Shown here: positions 28 through 16,407 of the stretch, piece after piece | How the letters are laid out: each line of letters opens with the position of its first letter | Position numbering within the stretch: position 1 is the first letter of the stretch | From: Candidatus Woesebacteria bacterium | GTDB lineage: Bacteria; Patescibacteriota; Microgenomatia; UBA1400; UBA1396 | NCBI GenBank assembly: GCA_963749595.1 | Contig: CAVVNJ010000001.1 | Span: 1,376 to 65,375, forward strand | Direction of reading: 5' to 3' | DNA: 64,000 nucleotides | Notes under the pieces: model-generated | Database searches by the model: none | The model's input: the letters and a program-made list of their open reading frames with translations, nothing else | What the model was told of the DNA's origin: nothing | Made by a program: the position numbers and the translations under genes

Positions 28-1233
28 CTATCCGCGACTGATCAGGTCCATGATTTGTCCCACGTTATCCACCTTTTCGATGCCATGGACCATTTCGACT
101 ATTCTCTCGATTGTCGCCGTCGACAGCGGTTTTATGGCATCGGCGGCGCATTCCCTGAATTTTCGCGCACAATCATCAAAAGACATGGGATTTTCCGCAC
201 TGCCCCGGAAATATTCGACCGCCTCGAAATATTCCGTCCCGTCATTCATGGTGATCCGGATTTTGCCCGGCGAAACACCATGAACGGTCATGCTGTCATC
301 GAGCACACCGTTAACTTTCTTCGCCACCTTCAGGATGTCCTTGTTTGTTATGCTCTGGTCGGTAAAGTCTTCGACGGTTACTTTGCCCTTAACGAGCGCG
401 GTGGAAACCGTCCAGGGTACACTGAATTGGGCGTCGACGATGTTACGCGGCGCTTGCTTGATTTCGGGGGGTTGCGTCAGGCTGTAGCCGGACTGCCCGC
501 CGATCGCCGTGATCTCCTTTACGTCGTCGGGGTTGATCTGGTTCTTCGCTCGCAGGCTAAGAACGGCATCGATGAATGGATGAGTAAAACCGCAGCAAGG
601 ATATGGTTTGAATCCGATGTTGATACCTTCATACACCTTCCCCAGGTCTTTCGTCAGTATTTTCGGATCGTAATCTCCCCTCATATAGGTGTTGTAAACC
701 CCACCCCTCCCCTCAACCCCCTCCAGCGGGTTCCGGTCCCCGGTAATTCCTTTTTCCGCCATCAGGGCGGCGGTCACTCCCGCACGGGCGGCAAATCCGG
801 GTCCCATCCTCTTCGCGATGCCCCCGCCCGTCCCCGCCCCGCCGCATTGATGGAACGCCAGGCCCAGCGCGTTAATCCATTTATCTTCGTCGAGCTTCAT
901 TACTTTAGCCGCCATGGCTCCGGAAGCCAGGCAGCCAAAAAGCGTTGTCGGATGAAATCCCGCCCCGAGCGCCGTGCCGCCCGGCCGGCTGGCCGCACCC
1001 AACCTGGAATCGAAGTCCCCGCCCAGGGCGACCGCGGCGACAAAATCCTTGCCGTTTACGTTTCCCATCCGTTCGGCGGCCGCAAAGCAGGTGGATATGG
1101 CGACGCAGCCGACGTGTACCAGCGATTTGGGGTGACCGTCATCGTAGTCCAGGGCATGCATCATCGAACCGTTGGCCTGGGCGGCATGAGGGTTTTTGCC
1201 GCTTCTCCGCATCAGAAGCCAGAACGGAACCAA
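28..1233 (-). CDS. MmgE/PrpD family protein (2-methylcitrate dehydratase-like), 5'-truncated
   Basis: 401-aa ORF with family motifs MHALDYDDGH, GFHPTT and KPYPCCGFTHP. It lacks the roughly 70-80 N-terminal residues usual for the family. Homology begins at about nt 1200, directly at a junction with a pilM fragment. Sampled lines give a higher local GC (about 58%) than the rest of the window. Confidence 0.8.
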   Translation of the reverse strand: MVPFWLLMRRSGKNPHAAQANGSMMHALDYDDGHPKSLVHVGCVAISTCFAAAERMGNVNGKDFVAAVALGGDFDSRLGAASRPGGTALGAGFHPTTLFGCLASGAMAAKVMKLDEDKWINALGLAFHQCGGAGTGGGIAKRMGPGFAARAGVTAALMAEKGITGDRNPLEGVEGRGGVYNTYMRGDYDPKILTKDLGKVYEGINIGFKPYPCCGFTHPFIDAVLSLRAKNQINPDDVKEITAIGGQSGYSLTQPPEIKQAPRNIVDAQFSVPWTVSTALVKGKVTVEDFTDQSITNKDILKVAKKVNGVLDDSMTVHGVSPGKIRITMNDGTEYFEAVEYFRGSAENPMSFDDCARKFRECAADAIKPLSTATIERIVEMVHGIEKVDNVGQIMDLISRG

Positions 1234-1342
1234 TCGGGTTAGAAACTTCTACCGCGCGCTCAATCGCCAGTCCCTGACCCGATTTCTTGCCGACTAAAAT
1301 TTTTATGGCATAAGAACCGATATCCAAACCGACATTAGACAT
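1139..1342 (-). pseudogene. pilM: PilM/FtsA-type actin-like ATPase, N-terminal fragment of about 47 codons
   Basis: The ORF starts MSNVGLDIGSYAIKILVGKKSGQGLAIERAVEVSNPIGSVLASDAEK, a typical PilM N-terminus. The PilM-like reading stops at about nt 1200, where PrpD-like sequence begins in another frame. Confidence 0.5.
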
Positions 1343-1384
1343 TACTTAATCGTAGAACAAAGCACGGTCTAGGGCAACCGATGA

Positions 1385-1753
1385 CTAGGAACGAAAACGG
1401 CTCGGATCAACTGATGATTTAGTTGATTTGCCAACTAAAACCTCAAATCTAGTTTCTTCGCCGAGCTTCTTCTGATCGATTTGCACCACGTACTGACCGA
1501 TTGTCAGATGGCCATCCGGTTTAATCATATAGCTAGTCCATTCAAAATCAGCGAGATCAGAGTAAGAATCGAAAGCAAATTGCTCAAACAAGGACTGGCA
1601 GATTATCTGGGCGCTTAACTTGCGGCCGGATCTTTCAATCCTGACCAGAGCCTCTTTAATCGCCGCGGTAAAATCAGCTAATTCAGTATGACGCTCCGGC
1701 TCCGGAAAGGCCGGAAATTGCACGGTGGTATCCTCAGTATGACGTCTGGTCAT
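1385..1753 (-). CDS. hypothetical soluble protein inside the pilus locus
   Basis: Intact 122-aa ORF with no TM segment or signal peptide. Its layout resembles the neighbouring 1797..2234 product (charged N-terminus, a helix, then a beta-rich end: ...RFEVLVGKS vs ...SFEIEVGSI). No family recognised. Confidence 0.6.
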   Translation of the reverse strand: MTRRHTEDTTVQFPAFPEPERHTELADFTAAIKEALVRIERSGRKLSAQIICQSLFEQFAFDSYSDLADFEWTSYMIKPDGHLTIGQYVVQIDQKKLGEETRFEVLVGKSTKSSVDPSRFRS

Positions 1754-1796
1754 ATTACCTCCCCCGCAGAGCGCGAGTTTTGGCGTATTATATCAC

Positions 1797-2234
1797 TCAC
1801 CGATAGCGCAACTCGCTGTCCGGCACTTGGTAGGAAGGATCGATTGACCCTACCTCAATCTCAAAGCTTAGCTTGCCCAAAGAAACGACCCGACACTCAA
1901 AACTGATTGCGTTAGAACCAATAAAAATCGCTCCTTGAAAGTTGAGTTTTTTGCTCGTTGAGTGGATTCGCAGGTAATGTTCATCAGCGAATCGAGTACC
2001 GGCAAAGTATTTAGCGAGTCCCTTAACGATTGTTCCTGGCGTTAAATCCAGCCCCGATTCTCCGAGCATGGCGACGGCGACTTTCAATTCTTCTCGCATC
2101 GCCGCAATTTCACCAACCAAAAACTCACCTTTTTGCTGCCGATCCTGCCGCCTTGATTCCTTGGTCTGTTGCTCCTGAGAGATGAAGCCAACTAAATCTT
2201 CCTTAGTCATATTCCTCCGTTCGATTTTTACCAC
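1797..2234 (-). CDS. hypothetical soluble protein, distant paralog of 1385..1753
   Basis: Intact 145-aa ORF (alternative start MTKEDL at 2210) with a Q/R/E-rich N-terminal helix. No family recognised. Confidence 0.6.
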   Translation of the reverse strand: MVKIERRNMTKEDLVGFISQEQQTKESRRQDRQQKGEFLVGEIAAMREELKVAVAMLGESGLDLTPGTIVKGLAKYFAGTRFADEHYLRIHSTSKKLNFQGAIFIGSNAISFECRVVSLGKLSFEIEVGSIDPSYQVPDSELRYR

Positions 2235-2239
2235 ATCTA

Positions 2240-2997
2240 TTACTTTAGTATCGTCGTTCCGGACACCAGCGCGTAATCCATGATCGCCGGCGCGTATTCC
2301 GAAGTTCGCTGGACTTCAATCGACTTGGTTTCCCGGCCGAGCGTGTTCTTAGCCACCGTATTGATCGTAAATTGCTGCACCGGGAGCGTCCAACCAACGC
2401 CGTTTACCAGTACCGGGGTATCGTTATAGATCGGCGTAATCCTGATCGCCACGTCCCCGTCCTGCATCGTCAAAACGACTTGCCGGGCCAACTCGGAACC
2501 TGGGGTAGTGACCAACGCGAAACCGTCGCCGCGCTCGCAGATGGCGTAAGAATAGTAGCGCGACACCGGCGTGCCCGTACTGCTATTGACCACCGCTAGA
2601 ATCAGCGAGGCCGGACTCAGGGCGCAGTCGGTCGTATCACTCCATTCGACCTGGCAACTTGCTGACCGTTAACGGCGCCGGTGACATTGACTTCCGCGAC
2701 CGAACCTTCGAGCAAATCAACCGATAACTGGGTTTGTTGGGCAATCGTATAGTCGACATTGGCATTTTCTACGCCGGTGTATTCACCGGTGGTGGTTGTT
2801 TCCAGATAAGTTGAGCCGCGGGAAAGGATATCCTCCAGCGCCGCTTCGGCCGCGGCGAAAGTTTGGACGGCTTCCTGGGTTTGGCGGGAGGACTGAACGT
2901 CTTGGGTACTGCGGGCCGCGATTGAAATTCCAATGGTTGACAGAACCACCATGATCAACAATACCGCGATACCGACTTGGCCTGACTGCGCGGACAT
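2240..2997 (-). pseudogene. PilX-like minor pilin, one frameshift near 2655
   Basis: An internal ATG at 2997 gives MSAQSGQVGIAVLLIMVVLSTIGISIAARS..., a PilX-type N-terminus. The reading frame ends at 2617. The frame of ORF 2240..2593 is open upstream (..QVEWSDTTDCALSPASLILAVVNSST..) and continues the protein. Confidence 0.55.
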
Positions 2998-3013
2998 GCC
3001 GCCAGTGTAGCAT

Positions 3014-3555
3014 TTATTGATAGGACCGCACATAGACATTCCCGGTAAAGTCTTGCGACGTAATAGGATTCGGATGACAGATCGGCCTGGTTGCCGCTTT
3101 CGATCCGAAATTGAACTCTGAATATAGGCGCCGCGCTCTTCCGGATCCTGGCGGCAGGAAAAGTTCAAACCGTGAAACTTTGACGGCCGAGCTGGACAGA
3201 TAGGCCGCCGGCGGGTCGGTGATGACGGTACCGGAGTTAGAAGCCACCCGATCGTCGATGCAGAGTAGACCTCCACCGACCCGCCGGACTGATCGATGAC
3301 GCGAATCGCACTCATTTCATCTCTGGCAGACTTGCTGAAACTGATTCTCCCCGACATAGCGAGCATTGCGTTAGGGAAAGTTGATTCCGTGAGGACGAAA
3401 TCGCCTTCCCGCCGCACTTGGGAAATTACGTTGGCCCGAGAGCTACGAATCTGCGAAGTAATCAAAACATTTACCGAGACCAAACTGACAATCGCGGTTA
3501 CTGCTACCACCGCAATCAGCTCGATTAATGAAAAACCACGCCTGGTCATTCCCAA
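3014..3555 (-). pseudogene. minor pilin with prepilin-type N-terminal methylation motif, frameshift near 3245
   Basis: N-terminus M(G)MTRRGFSLIELIAVVAV. After about 104 codons the plausible sequence moves into the frame of ORF 3014..3247 (ASNSGTVITDPPAAYLSS...RSYQ*). The remainder of the 312-aa track ORF is out-of-frame read-through into the next gene. Confidence 0.6.
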
Positions 3556-3643
3556 TCTCCCAGTAGACTCTCCAAAGTCGTCGTAATGGTTCCGGTCCGG
3601 CCGGGCCGACTGACTTGAGTGGTCGTTTTAACTTGGGTCAGAC

Positions 3644-4029
3644 CTAATAATTCGAATCTAACTTGACGGGATAGTTGGTGTCGGGAATAACTTCGTTCTC
3701 GGCGACAAGCCCCCGGCAGCTAACAAAATTAGGTCCGCTGATGAGGAAGCAATGGTTGGCAAACAATATGTTAGATCGGCACCAACGGACGCCAGGTTGC
3801 CATAAAATTGACCCCAGCCCTCCCGATCGCGAACACTTCGCAACCATTCAACCACTTCCTGCGCATACTGGGTCGATTTGGTCTGCTCCAGCGATACCCG
3901 AGCGTTACGCAAAGACTGGATCACCGTTGAAAGCAATGCGACCAAAACCAGTGAAATTACGGCAGTGGCAAAGGTCACTTCCACTAGGGTCTGGCCTGCG
4001 CAGCCAAGATCGCGAAAACGATTGGTCAT
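3644..4029 (-). pseudogene. pseudopilin (G|QTLVEV class), probable frameshift near 3750
   Basis: N-terminus ...LGCAGQTLVEVTFATAVISLVLVALL. The C-terminal part reads better in the overlapping frame (..LISGPNFVSCRGLVAENEVIPDTNYPVKLDSNY*), which supplies a second Cys for a D-region disulfide. Confidence 0.55.
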
Positions 4030-4056
4030 AGGTATCAGGTTATCATGAAGCGCCCG

Positions 4057-4557
4057 CTACAGTGAAATTATGCCGTGATCTTCAACCACCCCACTCACCG
4101 TAATCACGAACTCATAGGGCGTGGTGGTTTCATCAAGACGGGAAAGGCGCACGGTCTCCGGTGCCCCGATGATCGGACCGGATTGAACCGGAAAGATTAC
4201 GGAAAAATCAGTTAAAAAATATTCTTGTTCGCGCAGATGATAGACCATCCGCTCGTCGGCCTTGTCCGCACCGTCACAGCGGGCAACCAGATAAAAATCC
4301 TGGGTATTCTGGGCGGCATAGACCCGATAGCCATCAAGATTCGTGCAGTTGGCCGCCGGCTTGTCACCGGAACGGCTGCGATTTTGAGCCACCCGAAGTA
4401 CCGTAATAATGTCCTTGGCTGACTCGGCCCGGGCCTGGCGGGTAGCCAGACTGCCGTACGCCGCCAGGACGCCGCCCAACATGACTAGCCCCAAAGCCGT
4501 GGTGACCAGTAACTCGATGAACGTGAAACCGGAGTTAGCGCGGTTGGCTGACCACAT
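4057..4557 (-). CDS. pseudopilin, prepilin-type N-terminal domain (GspH/FimT-like size)
   Basis: Intact 166-aa ORF, MWSANRANSGFTFIELLVTTALGLVMLGG... Confidence 0.8.
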   Translation of the reverse strand: MWSANRANSGFTFIELLVTTALGLVMLGGVLAAYGSLATRQARAESAKDIITVLRVAQNRSRSGDKPAANCTNLDGYRVYAAQNTQDFYLVARCDGADKADERMVYHLREQEYFLTDFSVIFPVQSGPIIGAPETVRLSRLDETTTPYEFVITVSGVVEDHGIISL

Positions 4558-5003
4558 AGAGATTGGTTCCGGAGTAGCCGTAGCTGCTGCCGTTGATCAT
4601 GGTCGTCATCCGGATTTTCCAACCGCGTAATCAATTCATAGGTCAGCGTGGTGAGGCGGGTGTAGTTGTAGGTGTAGGTTTCGGTGGATAAACCGGTCAA
4701 ATCGCCGGAGAAATTAGCTTTGGGATCGACTGGTAGCGTCGCCACGTAAGTCGGCAGGATGCCGGGAATCCACTCCGCCGCGCAACCCGGCCAAGTGATA
4801 TCGCCGCCGCAATCGGTCGACTCGGGATATTCGCCGACCTGCTGCTTGTAGGCCTCCAACGCGACCTGCAGATTGGCCAGGTCTTTCTTCCGCCGCGCGT
4901 CACGGGTGAATTTTCCCGCATTAACGAACGACACGGTCAGGACGCTGCCAACACCGCGATGATCGCCTGACCACCAGCACCTCAATAAAGGTGAAAGCCG
5001 GAT
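4545..5003 (-). pseudogene. type IV pilin (PulG/PilE-like), at least 4 frameshifts and no start codon
   Basis: Re-translation across three frames gives KRSGF/TFIEVLVV/AIIAVLAA/VLTVSFVNAGKFTRDARRKKDLANLQVALEAYKQQ...YELITRLENP, then TTMINGSSYGYSGTNLYVVSQPR* ending at 4545. Single-nt indels sit near 4993, 4968, 4943 and 4605. Confidence 0.55.
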
Positions 5004-5006
5004 CGC

Positions 5007-5440
5007 TTAGTCGGTGACGCAATAAATGCCATCGCTGGTTACTCCGCAATTAGGACAAGGTTGGCCCTCGCCGGTTTCCACCACGGCACTTAATTCATAG
5101 GTGCATCCGGGCAGGTTATGCAATTTGTAACGGTAAAAATAGGCGGTTTGCGCCGTATTGTAGAGCGGGTCGGCAAAATTCTTGGTGTTGTACTCGGCGG
5201 TCAGATTTTCCAAAAAGTGCCGTCGCCGCTGTACTCATAGCCGCCGACTTCATTGGAAGAAACGGGGTAAGCGCCAACCTCCGAACGATAATTTTCAAGT
5301 ATTCCTCTCATCTCCTGCAGATCCGCCTTGCGCTTGGTATCGCGCGCGGTAACGATTCAGTTGCCGGAAACTGACCGCCACGACCGTCACCAGCACCGCA
5401 ATGATCGTGGTGTCACCAACAACTCGATTAGCGAAAAACC
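5007..5440 (-). pseudogene. type IV pilin, at least 3 frameshifts and no start codon
   Basis: Re-translation gives KSGFSLIELLV / TTIIAVLVTVVAVSFRQLN / IVTARDTKRKADLQEMRGILENYRSEVGAYPVSSNEVGGYEYSGDGTF / ENLTAEYNTKNF...CPNCGVTSDGIYCVTD*. Indels sit near 5412, 5354 and 5213 (a ttttt run). Confidence 0.55.
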
Positions 5441-5444
5441 GGAT

Positions 5445-5863
5445 TTACTGCAAGTTTTGGGCACAATAATAATCTCCCGCCGTCATGCTGCTGCAGTCGT
5501 TAGCGCTGGCATTACCGCGACCAGTTTGTTCCATGTGGCGCACATGCAATAGGTGGTCGGGGAACAAGTGAGAACGTAGGTGTAAGGTGCCGTCATTTTT
5601 CGGATCGACGGCAGACCGTTGGGCAGAACCACCAACCAAGAGTGCTGCCGACGCAACTGCCGAATATTCGGTGTTGATCGCGTAATACTGCTCCAGGGCT
5701 TTGCGGACATTTTCCACGTCTGCGCGCCGCCGGGAATCACGGCCGTTCTTCTGGGCGGTGGTAAAGCTCACCGTGGCCAGGGCCATCAGAATACCGATAA
5801 TCGAGATCGTTACTAATAGTTCCAGTAAAGTAAAACCCAACGCTTCCGTTGACGGTTCAGCAT
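5445..5863 (-). pseudogene. type IV pilin, leader frameshift plus a compensated internal pair
   Basis: The ATG at 5863 gives MLNRQRKR, then a 1-nt shift near 5838 leads into GFTLLELLVTISIIGILMALATVSFTTAQKNGRDSRRRADVENVRKALEQYY. Residues between about 5588 and 5535 read properly only in another frame (APYTYVLTCSPTTYCMCA). The original frame then resumes (MEQTGRGNASANDCSSMTAGDYYCAQNLQ*). Confidence 0.6.
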
Positions 5864-5867
5864 ATTT

Positions 5868-6773
5868 TCAGTATACACGATAAAAGCTATGTGAACTGGT
5901 GGAACACCCAATTCCACGATCATCGTATCCGACCGTCGCGGCGGCGACTCAACGCCGCGCTATCAGTCGCCCGCAATTGGACGGTGTAGGCGCAGGTGGT
6001 CGTCGGACAGGTATACTCTTTACTAAATTGGTCCGGACCGGTCGCTGCCCACAATTTCGTCTTTGGTGCCATCACCAAAATCGATGTTCACTTTTTCCAG
6101 CGGCGCCTCCGGTCATCATAAACAAAGTTGAACAAGACCACCGCCGAAGTTTCGGCAATACGCAAGCGATGCTGTTCGTAGTCGGCAAAGGGATCGGTCT
6201 GCAGCGAGAGTAGTAGGGGTCGTTGCAGGCAAGCTTGATAACAACGGCCCGGACAGTCGGTGACGCCGCGGCTATTGAGTTCGCCGTCACCCACTTCCAG
6301 CTCAGCGTCGCAACAGAACAAACCATGCGCGGCGCAGACACTGGCGGGCTTGGCCGCACGCAATTGGGTGCTGCCCCAGATCTGACAGGTCCTCTTTCCC
6401 TCGGCGTAAACCAATTTCTGGTGACCCCATAACTCGATCGTCAACTCTCCGGTTATATCTTGAGAAGTAAAATTATAGAAGAAGCCGGCCGAACCGGTAG
6501 TCTTTTTTACCAGCGGCGGCAACGATTTTCGTTGCCACTCGACCGGACTCGCGCGCCAGACAATGTACCTCCAGCACGTATTCTCGATTATCAAAAAGCG
6601 CAGCTGGAAACCGTCAAGGGTTGCCCCGCTAACAAATTGAGTGTACATTGCGGCGTTACTGCTCGCCCAGCGCTGCGGGAATAGTCAACAGGCGAGCATC
6701 CGACACCAGTTGGGTCCGGCCAGTAGAGCATTATTTCGCGACCGCCAAAAAAAACGGCGAAAAATAATAGCAT
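5868..6773 (-). pseudogene. pilus-operon protein with C-terminal PKD-like domain, multiply frameshifted
   Basis: ORF pieces 6591..6773 (MLLFFAVFFGG...), 6088..6648 and shorter pieces further down make up the gene. Re-translation of 5868..6090 gives VNIDFGDGTKDEIVGSDRSGP / QFSKEYTCPTTTCAYTVQLRATDSAALS / VAAATVGY..., a PKD-type signature. At least 3 frame changes are present. Confidence 0.4.
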
Positions 6774-7634
6774 GGCGTGACGGCTAGTCGGATTAGGGTA
6801 ATTACGAGAAAGTTCATATTGCCAGCAGGTGCAAGTACCATGCTAGCAAAGAATCGCCCCACAACAAAGCCAGAATCGTTCCGGCAACCAAGAAACGGTC
6901 CGAAGGGAAGGGGTTGGCCGAACTTCGCTCGGCCGTTAACAATTAGCGAACACCCCGATGACGGCCCCCAGGACAAAGGCCAAAAAGGTGGACACTAAAA
7001 CTTGGGGCCAACCAACTAACAACCCCAGCGGAAACACCAGTTTGACGTCACCAAAACCCAAGCCGCGTCGTCGGGTTGCCAACCATAGCACCAGGAACAA
7101 GCCCATGACTAACTGTGCGCCGAAGAGCGCCATTGCGAAAGTCGGTTTGCCGGTAAATACCCACGGCGGTTAACAACATTCGGTAACCAATGCCGCGCAG
7201 GCCAAAGTCAACATCGCCCAGTCGGGAATAATCATGGCCCGCAGAGTCGATTATGGTAATCAGCAACAGCAGCAGACCAACCGCCAGCCAGAAAACCGGC
7301 TGAATGACGTCCAGGGGACGTTGCGTCAACTGAAAAAAGGCGGTGCCAATCAACCACCACCAGACAAACAGGGCGCCTGTCAGCAGCTCCACCACCGGAT
7401 GCATGACGTCGATTTCCTTGTGGCAGGTCCGGCAGCGGCCGCGCAGCACCAGAAAAGATAACAGACGGCACCATTTCATACCAGGCTAACGGCCGGCGGC
7501 ACTGGTCGCAGCGCGAGCGGCCGTGCACGTAATCCTCGCCCGGCCAGCGTCCGCAGCACATAGACATTGATAAAGCTGCCAACACTCGCGCCCAATAGGA
7601 ATATTACTGGTGAAAACAATAACGATAGGTTCAT
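6731..7634 (-). pseudogene. pilD: prepilin peptidase / N-methyltransferase (A24 family), at least 5 frameshifts
   Basis: The ATG at 7634 gives MNLSLLFSPVIFLLGASVGSFINVYVLRT. Later pieces lie in different frames: ..RCDQCRRPLAWYEMVP, LLSFLVLRGRCRTCHKEIDVMHPVVELLTGALF, TLRAMIIPDWAMLTLA, GLGFGDVKLVFPLGLLVGW and PLPFGPFL. The 3' end is uncertain. Confidence 0.65.
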
Positions 7635-7644
7635 TACCCGGTCT

Positions 7645-8256
7645 TTACGGGATACAGGCTAAGCAGGTGCTCACGTCTGACCCGTCCATACATCCTACTG
7701 CCGGGCAGGCCGTTGCTGAGACATCATCGTTAACTCCACCGCTCGTGCAATCCTCCTGAGCCTTGGATTGGAATTCAAAGGAGGAGGGGTAGAAGCAGAT
7801 ATACATCGTGGTGTTAGCTCCGGTCGGGCTTGTAGATCAGGTAATCGACATCCGCGTCAGTCTTTCAGTCGGCTGACAAAAGCCTCCTTGATTTCAGCGC
7901 GATCGGCCAAAATGTCAACCCAGGACCAGGTTGGGGCAGTTCCCAAACACTCCGGTTTCATCAAAGATGAATTCGGAGATGTAGTCCGTATCACCGGTAG
8001 TATAGGCCGGGCAGGCGCCAGCGTTAGCCACGTTCCAAGGATAGGTTTCCTGCGTGGCAAAGAAACGGTCCACCGCGCTGATCAACTGCGCGGCGTCCGA
8101 ACGGGTACGGGTATCACGACCTTTGTTGATCTGTTCGATCGGGTTGATCGAAGACAAGACCGCTACGGCCAAAACGCCGATCACCGCGATCACCACCAAT
8201 AGTTCAATCATGGTGAAACCAGCGGAACGGAGGGACTTCAACATACGTGCAGGCAT
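7645..8256 (-). pseudogene. major type IV pilin candidate, 3 frameshifts
   Basis: MPARMLKSLRSAGFTMIELLVVIAVIGVLAVAVLSSINPIEQINKGRDTRTRSDAAQL... Frames change near 7920, 7858 and 7817. The last piece is ANTTMYICFYPSSFEFQSKAQEDCTSGGVNDDVSATACPAVGCMDGSDVSTCLACIP*. It is the first pilin after pilC. Confidence 0.65.
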
Positions 8257-8308
8257 ATTAATTTCCTTATGCTATTAAGCGTAGGACACGCGCCACCGAG
8301 TGTCAATA

Positions 8309-9514
8309 CTAAAACTGCGAAGTGAGGTTATAAATTGGCAAGACAATCGCCACGATCAGAAAGCCGACGCCCAGGCCCAGCACGATCATGATCAAAGGTT
8401 CCAACGCCGTGGTTAAACCCTTGACCGCGTACTCGGCCTCGCGTTCATAATAGGTGGCCAGCTTGGTCAAGACATCATCCAGCTGACCGGTTTCTTCGCC
8501 CACGGAAATCATTTGCGGCAGCAGGACCGGAAAAACGCCGGACTTTTCAATCGACCGGCTAAGCGGCTGGCCTTTTTCCACGTCGCGCCGGGCGGATTCA
8601 ATTGCCTGGCGGAAGACCAGATTATCCAAGCCGTTGATCACGATGTCCAGCGCTTCCAGCAGGGAAATGCCGGCGGAAATCAGCAGCGAGAGGGTGCGGG
8701 AGAACTCGGTCACCAAGATCTTCTGACGTAATTTGCCGTAAACCGGCAGCCGCAATAAAAATTTATCAAATTGGTATTGCCCATCTGCTTGGTCCGGTGC
8801 CAGGAACGGAAGATAAAAACTGCCAGAAAGACGAGCCCGGCCACGACATACCACTGATTGGTAAAGAAGTCTGACAAGTCGATCAGGAATTGGGTTGGTC
8901 CCGGCAGCTCGGCTCCGAAATCGGCATACATCTCGGTCATCTTCGGAATGACGAAGATCATCATCACGACCGCCACGATGGCCATCGCGATCATCACGAT
9001 CGCCGGATAGATCAGCGGCGCCCTTGGTTTTGGCCCGGAATTCCTTTCTGTTTTTCCAACGTGTCGGCCAGTCGGTTCAGAATTGTATCCAGGGCACCGG
9101 CCACCTCGCCCGCCTGAACCAGCGAGACATAGATTTTGTTAAAAATCTTGCCCTGTTTTCCCAAAGCCAGACCTAGATTTGATCCGCCTTCAACTTCCCG
9201 TTGCAGAGCGCGGATAATCTTAGCCATGGCGGGCGGGGATTGATTTTCCAGGACCGTGAAAGCCTGAATTAGGGGCAGGCCGGCATTAATCATCGTGGCC
9301 AGCTGGCGGGTAAAGTTCACTATGTCGTCCTGACTGACTTTGGCAAAATAATTTGAATTTCGGCCAGACCGGTCTCGCCGCTTTCCCGCAAAGAAATCAC
9401 GAAAATACTGCGCTCACGCAGGATGTTTAGCCGCCACGTCTTGAGTTTTCGCCTCGACTTTACCTTTGATTTTCTGGCTTTATTATCCCGACCGGCATAG
9501 ACGAAAGTCGGCAT
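8309..9514 (-). pseudogene. pilC: type IV pilus platform protein PilC (GspF family), about 6 single-nt indels
   Basis: Four track ORFs (9320..9514, 9012..9320, 8710..8997, 8309..8854) together give a full GspF/PilC sequence: MPTFVYAGRDNK.., NFTRQLATMINAGLPL, LIYPAIVMIAMAIV, FSRTLSLLISAGISLLEAL, LEPLIMIVLG. Frame changes sit near 9355, 9045, 9015 and 8790. A hidden compensated pair lies near 9480/9430. Confidence 0.8.
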
Positions 9515-9516
9515 AC

Positions 9517-10582
9517 TTAACGTCCCAGCAAGCGATCCAATTCGTCCGGACGGATGGAGTTATTGCGGGCCTCTTCCATCGAAATCACCCCGTTGTTGAC
9601 CAACTGGACCAGGTTAGCTTCCAGCAGTCACCATGCCGACATCGCTGGAGGTTTGCATGACGTTATCCAACTGATAGGTTTTGCCCTCGCGAATCAGATT
9701 CGAGGCCGCGGAGGTGTTGATCAGTACCTCGATCGCCGGTACGCGCTTTTTTCCGTCGATGGTCGGTATTAGGCGTTGGGAGATAACGGCCCGCAGCGTT
9801 GAAGCCAGTTGTTGACGAACCTGAAGCTGTTGAAACTCCGGAAACACATCAATGATTCGATCTACGGTATCCGGACCGGAATTGGTGTGGAGAGTGGCAA
9901 AAACCAAGTGCCCGGTCTCCGCCACGGTCAGGGCCGCTGAAATTGTTTCCAGATCGCGCATCTCGCCCACCAAAACCACGTTGGGATCCTCGCGCAGAGA
10001 GGCGCGAAGCGCATTTGGCCAGGAAAGGGTGTCTTGGCCAACCTCGCGTTGCGAGATCAGCGATTTGGCCGGTTGATAAATGAACTCGATTGGATCCTCG
10101 ATGGTCACGATATGTTCGCCACGAGTTTGATTAATTTCTTCGATGATCGCCGCCAGAGTCGAGGACTTGCCGGTGCCGGTCGGGCCGGTCACTAAAATGA
10201 AACCGGAATGCTCTTGGGCCATGCTATGGCAAATCGCCGGCAAACCCAGTTCGTCAATGGTCTGGATTTTGATCGGAATCAAACGCATGGAGATAGCCGT
10301 CGTATCCTTCTGGGTGTAGACGTTAACGCGCAAACGGGCCTTATCAGCATACTGATAGGAAAAATCAATCTCCTTGGTTTCTTCAAAGCGCGGTAAATTC
10401 TCTGGGCTCAGCAGCTGGAGGGCAAAATCGTGGGTTCGTTCCGGGGTTAATATCTCTTCGCCGGAAACCGGGAAAAGTTGGCCATTCACCCTTACCGTAG
10501 GCAGCATGCCGGAGATTAGATGCAAGTCGGAACCGCGCTCAGCAATAAGCAGATCCATTAATTGGTTGAGGGTGGCAGCCAT
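9517..10582 (-). CDS. pilT: twitching-motility ATPase PilT, 1-nt insertion near 9625
   Basis: 322-aa ORF with GPTGTGKSST (Walker A), VLVGEMRD and ATLHTN. After ..DVGMVT the true C-terminus (LEANLVQLVNNGVISMEEARNNSIRPDELDRLLGR*) is in the adjacent frame. Its stop is at 9517-9519, just before the pilC ATG. Confidence 0.85.
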
Positions 10583-10604
10583 AATCCCATTCTACGGCGC
10601 AACT

Positions 10605-12386
10605 CTAAATCTGCGCAACCCGGAGAACCTCTTCGATGGTGGTAATTCCTTCCAGGGCTTTCATATAACCGTCCTGCTTCATCAGCATCATGCCGTCAAC
10701 TTGCGCCATTTTTTCGATCTCGGCAGCACTGCGCTGCTCTAAAATCAGGCGACTGATCTTGTCGGTCACCGGCAACACTTCGAAAATAGCAATCCGGCCC
10801 AGATATTCCGGCTCAGTGGTCGGGCGATCGGCACGGCTACGGAAAAGCTTCACCTCCGGGAGCGTCAGGCCTTTTTGTTTCAGAAATGCGTCGAAATAGG
10901 GACCCAGTGAGGCTTTGATGTCTTCGAGTACTGCCGGAGGGGGACTGTATTCTTCGACAAAGTCGGGATTTAAGCGGCGGAGAACGCGCTGAGCCATCGT
11001 CAGGGTAATCGAAGAGGCAAGCAAGAACGGCTCGGCCTTCATATCCAACAGACGGGGCAGGGCACCGGCCGCGGAGTTCGTGTGAATAGTCGACAACACC
11101 AAGTGACCGGTCAATGAAGCCTGAATCGCCAAACCGGCCGTTTCTTCATCCCGAATCTCACCCACCATGATTATGTTTGGATCCTGCCGCAGAAAAGAGC
11201 GAAGACCTGAGGCAAAGGTCAGACCCGCCTGGGGGTTAACTTGGACCTGATTTATTCCTTCCATCTGATATTCGACCGGATCTTCCAGCGTCACGATATT
11301 TACCTCAGGCTTGTTCAGCAAATGCAAAATGGAGTACAAGGTGGTAGTTTTACCGGAACCGGTCGGACCGGTGATCAAAATAATGCCATGGGGCACCCGG
11401 ATCGCCGCTTCTAACTGACGCAAACCCAAACCGCGCAAACCCAAATCCCCCAGAGTGGGGACATTGCCTGATTTTTGTAAAATACGCATCACCACTTTTT
11501 CACCATGTGCAGTCGGCAAAGTAGAAACGCGTAAGTCGACTTCGTGGTCACCCTCGCGAAAAGTAAAGCGGCCGTCCTGTGGAATGCGTTTCTCGTCAAT
11601 CTTTAGATCCGATAAAATTTTAACGCGAGAAACCACCCCTTCATGGACATTTTTCGGCAAAACCAATTTCTCTTGCAAAATGCCATCAATTCGATAACGA
11701 ATCCGGGTTTTATCCTCCAGAGGCTCAATATGGATATCACTGGCCCGGGACTTTAACGAGAAACTTAGCATCGTCTCCACAATCTTGGCGATCGGCGCCT
11801 CTCGCATTACCTCACCGACACCAAAAGCGGTTTCAGACTCACCGGCGATTAAAATCTTCTTGCCAGCCGCGGGACCGGTTTCCCTGAGTGCCGCGGTCAC
11901 CTCGGTGGAAAGACTGGTGGCGTAGCGTTCGGCAATGGCCCGCTGAATTTCCTCAGCCGGGGCAATATAGGGTTTGACCCGCAAGCCGCTTTTTCGCTGG
12001 ATAAACTCGATCGCCTCTAAATCCAAGGGATTGGCCATCACCACCGACAGCTCGCTGTTTGCTTTATCCAAATTGAACGGCAGCAGGGAGTACATCTTGG
12101 CGGTACCGTCTGAAATTTGAGCCAGGGCTTCGGGTGAGGCCCCGACTTCTTCAATATCTAAGTAAGGAATGGCGTAAATAGCCGACTTCGCCCGAGCCAA
12201 GTCTTCGTCACTCACGTAATGTTTTTCATCCAATATTTGGTCGGGAGTCTTGCCGGTCCTAATTTGTTCCAGCGAAATGTCATCGCTCTGCAACGGCGTC
12301 AGTTTTCCCTGGTCGAGCAGGACGTCCACCAGTGAGGTGTAGCGGCGCGCCGGGGTGGCAGCTGGTTGGGCTGGGGCAGAGTCCAT
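10605..12386 (-). CDS. pilB: type IV pilus assembly ATPase PilB (GspE family)
   Basis: Intact ORF with GPTGSGKTTT (Walker A), IMVGEIRD and STIHTN, plus an N-terminal GspE-N-like domain. The track ORF extends to 12431, but MDSAPAQP at 12386 is the more likely start. Confidence 0.9.
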   Translation of the reverse strand: MDSAPAQPAATPARRYTSLVDVLLDQGKLTPLQSDDISLEQIRTGKTPDQILDEKHYVSDEDLARAKSAIYAIPYLDIEEVGASPEALAQISDGTAKMYSLLPFNLDKANSELSVVMANPLDLEAIEFIQRKSGLRVKPYIAPAEEIQRAIAERYATSLSTEVTAALRETGPAAGKKILIAGESETAFGVGEVMREAPIAKIVETMLSFSLKSRASDIHIEPLEDKTRIRYRIDGILQEKLVLPKNVHEGVVSRVKILSDLKIDEKRIPQDGRFTFREGDHEVDLRVSTLPTAHGEKVVMRILQKSGNVPTLGDLGLRGLGLRQLEAAIRVPHGIILITGPTGSGKTTTLYSILHLLNKPEVNIVTLEDPVEYQMEGINQVQVNPQAGLTFASGLRSFLRQDPNIIMVGEIRDEETAGLAIQASLTGHLVLSTIHTNSAAGALPRLLDMKAEPFLLASSITLTMAQRVLRRLNPDFVEEYSPPPAVLEDIKASLGPYFDAFLKQKGLTLPEVKLFRSRADRPTTEPEYLGRIAIFEVLPVTDKISRLILEQRSAAEIEKMAQVDGMMLMKQDGYMKALEGITTIEEVLRVAQI

Positions 12387-12423
12387 GCTTTCATGGTAAC
12401 ACCCGCGTGGTATTCTGTAACTA

Positions 12424-12899
12424 TGGACCAACCCGGCGCGCCCGCATCTTACTCTGGTGAATCAGTGCCTGAAATGCCAAAAGTTGACCCGGCAAAACAA
12501 AAGCAAGCTCAGTTGGATCAACAAAAATCCCAACACCAAGCAGCGGCTATCCAAAAAGCCACCACCCAAAGGCAACAAGTCTGGCAACAATTTCTCGCCC
12601 ATAAAAAACAAACCGAACAGCAACGGGTTCAAACCACAATTCAGCTTAAAAATGAAGCCAAGAAAATTGCAACTTACAGCCCTAGCTCAGCTGTGCTCTC
12701 CACGACTACCGGTGGCGACTTAAGCGAACAAACCGTGGTTCAATCGGCCATGGAATCAGCCCGGGAACAACGAATCCGCGAACAAAAAGCCAGACAAAAC
12801 GCCGCTAAACCAGGTGCCCCAGGGAAGGCGCCATCAACCACCAAAACCGATGATCAAGATTCGCTGCAACGGCAATCGGAACAAGCCATGGGCGAGTAG
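12424..12899 (+). CDS. hypothetical Q/K-rich low-complexity protein
   Basis: The ORF frame is open from 12366. The likely start is MDQPGAP at 12424. Composition is strongly biased towards Q, K and A. Divergent from pilB. Confidence 0.45.
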
Positions 12900-12957
12900 A
12901 TCATGATCTTACTTTAATATCCGCTCTCTAGATCTGGAATCAGGTTACAATAGCTCC

Positions 12958-14296: not shown

Positions 14297-14602
14297 ATGT
14301 ACACATTTCCCAAGCACCCAAAGACAGATCATGGTCTCTATCTGCGCTCAGATTTAGCCAATGAAATTGTCTCTGCGGCCAGATTCAGGAATGATATGTT
14401 CGCTCTCTATCGCCGATTTCCTGACTCAATCAGCCAGCGAACAACGTCAAATAGTGGTCAGGAACATGAAGGAGGGATTCGACATGTTTCTGGTTACGCC
14501 GCTCGACCCCTTGGGGGAAAGGCGGCAGAAGATTTCTTACGACCGTTGCTGAGCGAAGTAAATTTCTGGAGGAACGCCCGTGCGGATGCCCATCATCTGT
14601 GA
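14297..14602 (+). CDS. hypothetical ORF (uncertain frame)
   Basis: Two overlapping ORFs in different frames (14297..14602 and 14361..14552). No family recognised. Could be a small partner gene of 14580..15008. Confidence 0.2.
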   Translation: MYTFPKHPKTDHGLYLRSDLANEIVSAARFRNDMFALYRRFPDSISQRTTSNSGQEHEGGIRHVSGYAARPLGGKAAEDFLRPLLSEVNFWRNARADAHHL

Positions 14603-15008
14603 TGACTCAATTTTTGAACTACTGGCTAAAGGCGATGCCTTTCCCTACCAAAAATTGCTCAGACGTCATTTCGCCCGCCTTGGCACTCTTTATGTTTTGC
14701 CAGAAACAATCGAATTCCTTACTGTTGAGAAGCGAATTGATTTACCGTTCAATGTTTTTGCTCCTTTTCGCCTGATCGTTCCCGACCACTTCGCCATCTA
14801 TCGAGCCACTGCCTTGGCGGTATGTGAATCTATTCCATTACATCGTGCCCTGATTGTCGAATCATCGGCGCACTATCTTATGCCTATTGCCTATTCCTAT
14901 CCGCGAACCTACCACGGTTTAGGTCTACCCTGGGAGCGGCATCTCTACCTGCCCTCAAGGCTAGGTTACAATAAGCCGAATGTCGCGCTTCGCCCCAATC
15001 CAAACTAA
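14580..15008 (+). CDS. hypothetical protein, weakly PIN-like
   Basis: 142 aa with a GTG start. PIICDDSIFELL and LYVLPETIEFL resemble the first PIN strands, but the later acidic residues are not evident. The gene sits between the Nudix gene and sufB. Confidence 0.35.
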   Translation: MRMPIICDDSIFELLAKGDAFPYQKLLRRHFARLGTLYVLPETIEFLTVEKRIDLPFNVFAPFRLIVPDHFAIYRATALAVCESIPLHRALIVESSAHYLMPIAYSYPRTYHGLGLPWERHLYLPSRLGYNKPNVALRPNPN

Positions 15009-16407
15009 ACCGACGGCGGAGGTTTTTCCGGTCGATTATCAGCACGGCTTTTCCTTTAGTACCGCCGATTACGCCCTGATCGCTAGTCCTGGACTAGATC
15101 AACGTACCGTAGAATTGATCTCTTACCACAAATCAGAACCGGCGTGGATGCTTCAGAAGCGCTTGGCCGGACTAGCTTTGTTTGAACAACGCCCGCTACC
15201 CAATTGGGGACCGGATTTATCCGGAATCCATTTTTCTAAAATTCACTACTATCTCCGCCCCATGAACCAGGCTGTGAAAAATTGGAAAGATGTACCCGAT
15301 GACATTAAGACTACCTTTGACCGTATCGGCGTGCCCAAAGCCGAACGCGAGTATCTGGCTGGGGTAAAAATGCAGTATGACAGCGAGGTGGTATACGGTT
15401 CGTTAAAGAAACAATGGGAACAAGACGGCGTGATTTTTTTGTCGATGGACGAGGGGTTGGCCCAATATCCGGATTTAGTACAGCAATATTTCGGCACTAT
15501 TATTCCAACCGGTGATAATAAGTTCGCATCCCTCAATACTGCTTGCTGGAGCGGGGGATCGTTCGTCTACGTCCCGCCTGGGGTACAAGTCAAAATGCCG
15601 CTGCAAACCTACTTCCGAATCAACGCCCAAAATGCCGGTCAGTTTGAGCGTACGTTGATCATTGTCGATGAGGGGGCCAGTGTGCACTATCAGGAAGGCT
15701 GTACCGCACCCGCTTTCAGCGCACATTCGCTCCATGCGGCCGTGGTTGAAATCATCGTCAAGCGCGGCGCTCGCTGCCAGTACACCACCATTCAGAACTG
15801 GTATCCGAACGTCTACAACCTCGTTACTAAACGGGCCTGGGTCGAAGCCGAGGGTGAAATGATCTGGACCGATTTTAATTTGGGATCAAAAGTCACAATG
15901 AAATATCCAGGATTCGTTTTAGCCGGTAAAGGAGCTAAAGGTGAAGCCTTGTCGATGGCCATCGCTGGTCGTGGACAACATCAGGATACCGGCAGCAAGG
16001 CGATTCACCTGGCACCGTATACCAGTTCGACGATCGTGGCCAAGTCGATTAGTAAGGGCGGCGGCCGGGCCGGCTATCGGGGCCTGGTCCAGGTCGGCCC
16101 GGCCGCCTTCGGCAGCAAAAACAAAGTCGTCTGCGACGCACTAATCATGGATCCCCAAAGCCGTACCGATACTTATCCCACCGAGCGCGTGTTCACTAGC
16201 GACGTCCAACTCGAGCACGAGGCCACGGTTAGCCGCATCGGTGAGGAACAACTTTTTTACCTCATGAGCCGTGGCTTAGACGAAACTGAAGCGAGTAAAT
16301 TAATTGTCCGTGGTTTTGCCGAACCGTTGGTGCGGAAGCTCCCACTCGAATACGCCATAGAGATGAACCGGCTGATCGATTTAGAAATGGAAGGATCGAT
16401 CGGCTAG
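14980..16407 (+). CDS. sufB: Fe-S cluster assembly scaffold SufB
   Basis: 475 aa of typical SufB length and sequence (..FASLNTACWSGGSFVYVPPGV.., ..HEATVSRIGEEQLFYLMSRGL..). Confidence 0.9.
   Translation: MSRFAPIQTKPTAEVFPVDYQHGFSFSTADYALIASPGLDQRTVELISYHKSEPAWMLQKRLAGLALFEQRPLPNWGPDLSGIHFSKIHYYLRPMNQAVKNWKDVPDDIKTTFDRIGVPKAEREYLAGVKMQYDSEVVYGSLKKQWEQDGVIFLSMDEGLAQYPDLVQQYFGTIIPTGDNKFASLNTACWSGGSFVYVPPGVQVKMPLQTYFRINAQNAGQFERTLIIVDEGASVHYQEGCTAPAFSAHSLHAAVVEIIVKRGARCQYTTIQNWYPNVYNLVTKRAWVEAEGEMIWTDFNLGSKVTMKYPGFVLAGKGAKGEALSMAIAGRGQHQDTGSKAIHLAPYTSSTIVAKSISKGGGRAGYRGLVQVGPAAFGSKNKVVCDALIMDPQSRTDTYPTERVFTSDVQLEHEATVSRIGEEQLFYLMSRGLDETEASKLIVRGFAEPLVRKLPLEYAIEMNRLIDLEMEGSIG

Follow-up and report, generated by a model that had tools for sequence, protein, structure and literature searches.

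The 64,000-nucleotide stretch analyzed here (the window, from contig CAVVNJ010000001.1 of a Candidatus Woesebacteria assembly) carries a type IV pilus locus on its minus strand between positions 1139 and 12431. The genes follow one another as pilB, pilT, pilC, a major pilin, pilD, a gene for a 305-aa membrane protein, six minor pilins, a PilX-like gene, two orphan open reading frames (ORFs) and a cut pilM. This is the order that an earlier note on this DNA had proposed, and it is confirmed by Pfam matches and by collinear loci in three relatives (L081, L001, and L002). Searches with the raw ORFs matched T2SSE together with MshEN, a second T2SSE, pieces of T2SSF, N_methyl, a piece of A24_N_bact, PilX_N and, weakly, PilM_2. 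Many of the genes are out of frame as assembled, and frameshifts were located by a frameshift-aware dynamic-programming alignment of intact L081 proteins to the window DNA; an earlier pass used L001 proteins. The genes from pilB to the PilX-like gene are as follows (identities are to L081; a slash in a motif follows position -1; m1 to m6 are the minor pilins).

10605-12386, minus strand: pilB, extension ATPase; 593 aa from its ATG, intact; Pfam T2SSE 8e-122 and MshEN 1e-18
9517-10582, minus strand: pilT, retraction ATPase; one frameshift near 9628; 85% identical
8309-9514, minus strand: pilC, platform protein; six frameshifts (~9477, 9428, 9354, 9047, 9016, and 8783)
7645-8256, minus strand: major pilin candidate; 202 aa when corrected; three frameshifts (~7947, 7865, and 7822); N_methyl/TIGR02532; motif RSAG/FTMIELLVV
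6814-7634, minus strand: pilD, prepilin peptidase; seven frameshifts; 230/270 residues identical; GFGDVK motif retained
5888-6817, minus strand: membrane-anchored Cys-rich protein of the p308 family; eight frameshifts; 305 aa when corrected; L081 ortholog at 14570-15496 (P0122)
5445-5863, minus strand: minor pilin m1; three frameshifts; N_methyl 3.6e-8; TIGR01710 region 1-90; 80% identical to its ortholog
5007-5464, minus strand: minor pilin m2; three frameshifts; motif KSG/FSLIELLV; 79% identical to its ortholog
4535-5022, minus strand: minor pilin m3; three frameshifts; motif DPA/FTFIEVLVV; 69% identical to its ortholog
4057-4557, minus strand: minor pilin m4; 166 aa, intact, no frameshift; N_methyl 8.6e-6; 124/165 residues identical
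3546-4029, minus strand: minor pilin m5; two frameshifts; variant motif CAG/QTLVEV; weak N_methyl; 74% identical to its ortholog
3014-3549, minus strand: minor pilin m6; six frameshifts; motif RRG/FSLIELIAV; TIGR02532; 137/175 residues identical when corrected
2240-3039, minus strand: PilX-like protein; 265 aa, no Glu5; one frameshift near 2654; 194/265 residues identical

Identification of the pilus machinery

Profile matches show an enzyme set complete for prepilin processing, fibre extension, and fibre retraction, and the frame-corrected PilC, PilD, PilT, and pilins match the families that the earlier note had expected of them. The pilB ORF spans 10605-12431, with the ATG at 12386 as the likely start; it has no frameshift, and its product is 84% identical to PilB of L081. 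It matches TIGR02538 over positions 2-562 of 564 with 528 bits, under the equivalog cut-off of 676, and also matches TIGR02533 over its full length, again under the equivalog cut-off of that model. Corrected PilT (354 aa; the raw ORF breaks off at residue 318) matches TIGR01420 (pilT_fam) over positions 2-343 of 343 with 445 bits against a cut-off of 319. The two T2SSF domains of a PilC (3.3e-65) are found only once the six frameshifts are corrected, giving a protein of 398 aa with 340 of 398 residues identical to L081. Corrected PilD covers A24_N_bact positions 1-81 of 84 and Peptidase_A24 positions 3-104 of 104. A six-frame regular-expression scan of the 64-kb window found exactly seven prepilin motifs, the number of prepilin genes previously claimed, all on the minus strand and all within the locus (8220, 5837, 5440, 4998, 4530, 3996, and 3537). 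PilB also carries an MshEN-type N-terminal domain (12100-12330, residues ~86-174), a domain family known from cyclic-di-GMP-binding MshE/PilB ATPases.

A scan based on PilB, with one genome per species, found the closest loci mostly in Patescibacteria (Woese-, Pace-, Cerri-, Ames-, and Gottesmanbacteria metagenome-assembled genomes, or MAGs), and the Logan contig L081 is closer to the window than any of those MAG loci. L081, L001, and L002 are collinear with the window and have every gene intact, in the order pilB-pilT-pilC-pilin-pilD-p308-six minor pilins-pilX-pilM-pilN-like(-pilO-like). The core order B-T-C-A-D...X-M recurs in >40 Patescibacteria loci, and homologs of the major pilin occupy the slot between pilC and pilD in most of them. 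Because family matches, prepilin motifs, and collinear Patescibacteria loci agree, the identification of a pilus locus and its assignment to the Candidate Phyla Radiation (CPR) both stand; the CPR-style pilus was rightly anticipated from the bare sequence. The MAG records of L001-L003, L008, L010, and others are titled "uncultured Pseudomonadales" or "Gammaproteobacteria", yet gene content and synteny clearly place them in Patescibacteria; the titles are a taxonomy-label artefact of one third-party-annotated submission series.

The same matches bear on the possibility that the locus encodes a type II secretion system or a ComG-type competence pseudopilus instead of a retractile type IV pilus. 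The GspE and GspF models fit PilB and PilC about equally well, minor pilins m1-m3 are GspG-like at the N-terminus, and DNA uptake has been proposed as a role of CPR pili (PMC6744442). However, the locus encodes a full-length retraction ATPase of the PilT/PilU family above the curated cut-off, its relatives have a PilM of the PilM_2 type, and ComGA and ComGB models score far below the PilB and PilC models. A Pfam scan of the ORFs in 28-12431, which did not extend exhaustively to the remainder of the window, turned up no secretin (PilQ/GspD). Retractile type IV pili have moreover been demonstrated experimentally in cultivated CPR bacteria (PMC9894109, PMC11623550). We consider a secretion system or competence pseudopilus very improbable at this locus.

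Frameshifts and the quality of the deposited sequence

Between 2654 and 9628 the locus contains 43 frameshifts; none occurs in pilB, in codons 1-318 of pilT, or anywhere in 28-2650. About 24 are changes of +1 (one base skipped) and 19 are changes of -1 (two bases skipped), with no larger events. The two-base skips are usually accompanied by one missing residue, a sign of one-base deletions. A codon-usage Viterbi frame map served only as a guide; frame switches that it suggested outside the verified genes (for example at 52.4-53.3 kb and in the C-terminus of yidC) were not confirmed as frameshifts. The yidC profile match ends at position 145 of 163, and the C-terminus of this gene may be shifted too.

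Several observations suggest that the 43 frameshifts are most likely assembly errors in the deposited contig and not gene decay. The corrected path of ~2,325 codons contains zero in-frame stops, against ~95 expected in random frames, and catalytic and structural domains are full length once frames are corrected. The corrected proteins are 70-85% identical to those of L081, the range in which intact PilB (84%) also lies. When L001 serves as outgroup in a relative-rate test, the window and L081 are equally close to it, the per-gene differences being -2.7 to +4.9 points. There is no acceleration and no signal of relaxed constraint. Frameshifts also occur in housekeeping genes elsewhere in the window: alignment to L001 shows them in pyrG (~25561), rplS (~25956), and a yraN-like gene (26417 and 26470), and they are likewise present in glmS (~35160), murD (~36840), and dnaG (~60175). 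In glmS, MCG...LEYRGYDS lies in one frame and GHTRWATNG in another; in dnaG, the CHC2 zinc finger and the catalytic core are in different frames. These lesions cannot all be real, because a viable ~1-Mb genome could not lose such essential genes. Errors affect the contig at large and are not confined to the pilus genes. Gene calling on the deposited NCBI/ENA contig of 115,997 bp produced exactly these broken fragments (322 aa for PilT, 67 aa for PilM, and 186 aa for part of p308), and the lesions therefore sit in the deposit itself. The earlier note had stitched frames together by hand; the need for this was real, but the broken frames were not recognised as likely assembly indels.

The alternative is real and very recent pseudogenisation, in which deletion of most of pilM together with pilN and pilO made the pilus useless and frameshifts then accumulated in a living population. 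It would account for the truncation of pilM at the junction, for the concentration of frameshifts in pilus genes (43 in 7 kb), and for their lack of connection with homopolymers. It is at odds with the absence of nonsense codons and multi-base indels beside the 43 frameshifts, with the lack of acceleration relative to L001, with the untouched pilB and 90% of pilT, and with the same type of lesion in pyrG, rplS, glmS, murD, and dnaG, which could not all be real in a viable ~1-Mb genome. We regard such pseudogenisation as very unlikely. It would likewise be a long shot that the indels and the pilM truncation together record a Microgenomates population that has just lost its pilus through a pilM-N-O deletion, with the remaining operon decaying by single-base indels; if true, a CPR lineage would have been caught abandoning an organelle thought central to its episymbiotic life.

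A biological use of the frameshifts, by phase variation, programmed frameshifting, or transcriptional slippage, has their large number and nothing else in its favor. The sites are not at homopolymers or simple repeats and their context equals the background, and 43 independent sites across the 12 genes from pilT to pilX, with changes of both +1 and -1, fit no known recoding mechanism. This explanation is effectively refuted.

Several points nevertheless weigh against reading the locus as an intact operon behind consensus errors. The frameshift sites show no preference for homopolymers or simple repeats, their context matching background, and so lack the pattern best known from errors of long-read or 454 sequencing. 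Their clustering is extreme (43 in 7 kb, while the remaining 57 kb holds at least 7; binomial P ~2e-34), and there are clean gaps of 836 and 900 bp within the error block. PilB adjoins the error block and is clean. A truncated pilM beside a frameshifted operon is also what a decaying locus would be expected to show. Same-species sequence, in which the intact version would be directly visible, was found in no searchable collection. The roles of individual minor pilins, finally, rest on weak N-terminal similarities and position. Patchy polishing, or a strain-mixed consensus over a variable locus, is a plausible cause of the clustering.

Among the other sequences compared, L082 (a cluster mate, P0121) has only 75% nucleotide identity to the window and stops before the error block. 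A scan of JGI metagenome contigs with corrected PilC returned no close relative, the best match being 40% identical. Exact-protein searches with PilB (from two starts), SufC, and two further proteins yielded no retrievable identical contig.

On balance, the region very probably holds a type IVa-like pilus operon of the complete type, without a secretin, from a Patescibacteria bacterium of the Microgenomates group, with genes that are most likely intact, indels that are consensus errors, and an end at ~1192 that is premature. The practical meaning is a warning: in places the deposited contig carries ~1 indel every 160 bp, it probably contains a mis-join, and inferences of gene content drawn from it (pilus pseudogenes, a lack of PilN and PilO, or PrpD metabolism in CPR bacteria) would be artefacts.

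Pilins and the PilX-like protein

The first ~60 residues of the major pilin candidate are near-invariant between the window and L081, L001, and L002. All seven pilins are 69-80% identical to the L081 pilin at the same position, and their C-terminal domains alone are 66-78% identical, much as elsewhere in the operon. Compared with their own paralogs in the window, the seven share 15-32% identity, and at most 33% in the C-terminal domains. One-to-one orthology is also seen, more weakly, against L001.

The earlier note had read the three tandem pilins m1-m3, with their divergent C-termini, as a variable-tip repertoire. This does not hold: each has a one-to-one positional ortholog in L081, and the C-terminal domains of the three are 69-78% identical to those orthologs. 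An antigenically variable or cassette-like repertoire was rejected, as the C-termini are conserved in positional orthologs and are not fast-diverging between close relatives. Because each pilin is ~69-80% identical to its positional ortholog and 15-32% identical to its paralogs, the tandem pilins are old and stable rather than fast-varying; by sequence comparison, they are stably inherited paralogs. In m3 (window 4998), Ala stands at position -1 where the L081 ortholog has Gly (DSG/F); possible explanations are a tolerated variant and a substitution error of the same low-quality block.

The N-terminal regions offer weak resemblances, GspG-like in m1-m3 and ComGE/XpsI(GspI)-like in m5. The PilX-like protein matches PilX_N at 9.8e-6, with 25.9 bits against a cut-off of 25.5. 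In type II secretion systems and type IV pili, GspH-I-J-K and FimU-PilV-W-X form a priming complex capped by a member that lacks Glu5. By analogy, m4, m5, m6, and the PilX-like protein may form a tip or priming complex.

The left end of the locus and its flanks

The locus ends in an incomplete pilM, which is followed by a gene outside the pilus system and preceded by an insertion between pilX and pilM.

1385-2234, minus strand: ~880-bp insertion between pilX and pilM, with two orphan ORFs (1797-2210/2234 and 1385-1753)
1193-1342, minus strand: pilM, first 50 codons only; homology to L001 and L081 PilM ends at residue ~50 (window 1193-1195)
28-1191, minus strand: gene of the MmgE/PrpD family, 5'-truncated; abuts pilM in another frame, with the junction at ~1189-1195

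That pilM is cut off had been noted before, and indeed only residues 1-50 are present (1342-1193). The 67-aa ORF at 1139-1342 matches the start of PilM_2 over its first ~47 residues, with a weak Pfam score. In relatives, PilM is 339-340 aa long (340 aa in L001, PilM_2 1.7e-41) and is followed by two single-pass proteins, of 188 and ~249 aa, that faintly resemble GspL_C and T2SSM and are consistent with pilN and pilO. Of a PilM-PilN-PilO subcomplex, the window holds PilM residues 1-50 and nothing after. These three genes seem absent because the locus stops at the ~1192 junction, which is a truncation of the sequence and not a feature of the type of system. The missing pilN, pilO, pilP, and pilQ had been taken as a CPR trait. 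For the secretin this agrees with published CPR clusters (PMC6744442), but for pilN and pilO it reflects the truncation, as relatives carry pilN-like and pilO-like genes.

The Pfam MmgE_PrpD_N match of the neighboring gene begins at profile position 71 of 244, and the codon model switches frame at 1188/1189. Homologs of this protein are 459-462 aa long and 60-72% identical, and every named one is from Chloroflexota/Dehalococcoidales. A single point thus truncates both pilM and the MmgE/PrpD gene, and the leftmost 1.2 kb has a foreign look for a CPR genome. The junction at ~1192 is most likely a mis-join or a contaminating segment; the alternative is a real deletion or horizontal transfer. Neither the junction at 1192 nor the surroundings of the ~880-bp insertion contain meaningful repeats or microhomology.

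In L081 the gap between pilX and pilM is 22 bp, and the insertion is absent from L081, L001, and L002. Its two orphan ORFs have no Pfam matches even at E<=10 and are not paralogs of each other. The 137-aa orphan ORF has only distant matches to Ig-like (Big_13) repeats of giant proteins.

At the opposite end, the spacer between pilB and sufC (12387-12957) holds one Q/K-rich 177-aa ORF with no Pfam match, and this spacer varies among close relatives. It contains three small genes in L081 (7073-8942) and in L082 (3200-5087), and a single 263-aa low-complexity gene in L001 (9092-9883), again with no Pfam match in any of them. An Rfam search over the window found two tRNAs and nothing else.

A possibly lineage-specific Cys-rich membrane protein

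The gene between pilD and the minor pilins encodes the membrane-anchored p308-family protein, which the earlier note had described as a PKD-domain protein. Among 5.8 billion proteins, it has 18 homologs of 301-312 aa, and the family shares ten invariant cysteines and a DFGDGT motif. No Pfam model reaches its cut-off with the protein or its orthologs; PKD_4 is sub-threshold (14.9-16.4 bits against a cut-off of 27, E 0.009-0.028), at the same C-terminal place in three orthologs. An AlphaFold2 model (predicted local distance difference test score 78.5) begins with a long membrane helix at the N-terminus, followed by a beta-sandwich, a Cys-rich linker of low confidence and, at the C-terminus, a second beta-sandwich modeled with confidence. 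The best Protein Data Bank match of the latter is the PKD domain 4xed (E 2.8e-4, TM(target) 0.61), among many generic Ig-like matches. The PKD assignment thus finds modest structural agreement, while its profile matches stay below threshold; "PKD-like" is a reasonable label for the modeled fold, though not an established one.

Only the nearest Microgenomates relatives have a p308 gene between pilD and the minor pilins, and its product may be a lineage-specific pilus accessory protein. The family is a small positive lead, a narrow group of Cys-rich, membrane-anchored proteins with two beta-sandwiches within the pilus operon of this subclade.

A model for the pilus

From these components, a working pilus can be sketched. 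PilD would cleave the leaders of the seven prepilins. PilB, on the PilC platform, would polymerise the major pilin (7645-8256), with PilM, PilN, and PilO presumably taking part in the real genome. A minor-pilin complex of m4, m5, and m6 with the Glu5-less PilX-like protein as cap may prime assembly; the GspG-like m1-m3 are three further pilins of the locus. PilT would retract the fibre, and the secretin would be missing because CPR cells are without an outer membrane. By analogy with cultivated Saccharibacteria, the pilus could serve in host attachment, twitching, and possibly DNA uptake (PMC9894109, PMC11623550, PMC6744442).

Comparison with known pilus systems

The locus is a routine CPR type IV pilus operon, read through an error-laden, probably chimeric stretch of a MAG contig. 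Biologically it adds little, as co-localised, secretin-less operons of PilB/T/C/D/M/N/O and pilins are a published hallmark of the CPR. Typical components of CPR pili include PilM, PilN, and PilO, and PilQ is reported to be lacking (Meheust et al. 2019, PMC6744442). The window shares with those clusters its component set, co-localisation, and absence of a secretin. It differs in that pilM is cut at 50 codons, pilN and pilO are missing, and genes are out of frame as assembled, and in the 880-bp insertion of two ORFs between pilX and pilM.

Saccharibacteria (TM7i and Nanosynbacter/Southlakia) use retractile type IV pili for host binding and twitching (PMC9894109, PMC11623550), and like the window they combine PilB and PilT motors with several pilins in a monoderm-like CPR cell. 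In contrast, the lineage of the window belongs to the Microgenomates group and not to Saccharimonadia, and the pilins share the N-terminal helix only. The p308-family gene, too, is seen only in the closest relatives of the window.

With the diderm type IVa pilus of Pseudomonas and Myxococcus (PilA-PilBTCD-PilMNOPQ), the window has in common the motor ATPases, the platform, the peptidase, PilM, and a PilT-family match above cut-off, as well as some four core minor pilins, the last of them PilX/GspK-like and without Glu5 (FimU-PilVWX). Unlike the diderm system, it is without the PilP/PilQ secretin module and PilY1, and its PilB and PilC fall under the NCBIfam equivalog cut-offs. Its operon holds three additional pilins that are GspG-like, together with a membrane protein that is Cys-rich and PKD-like.

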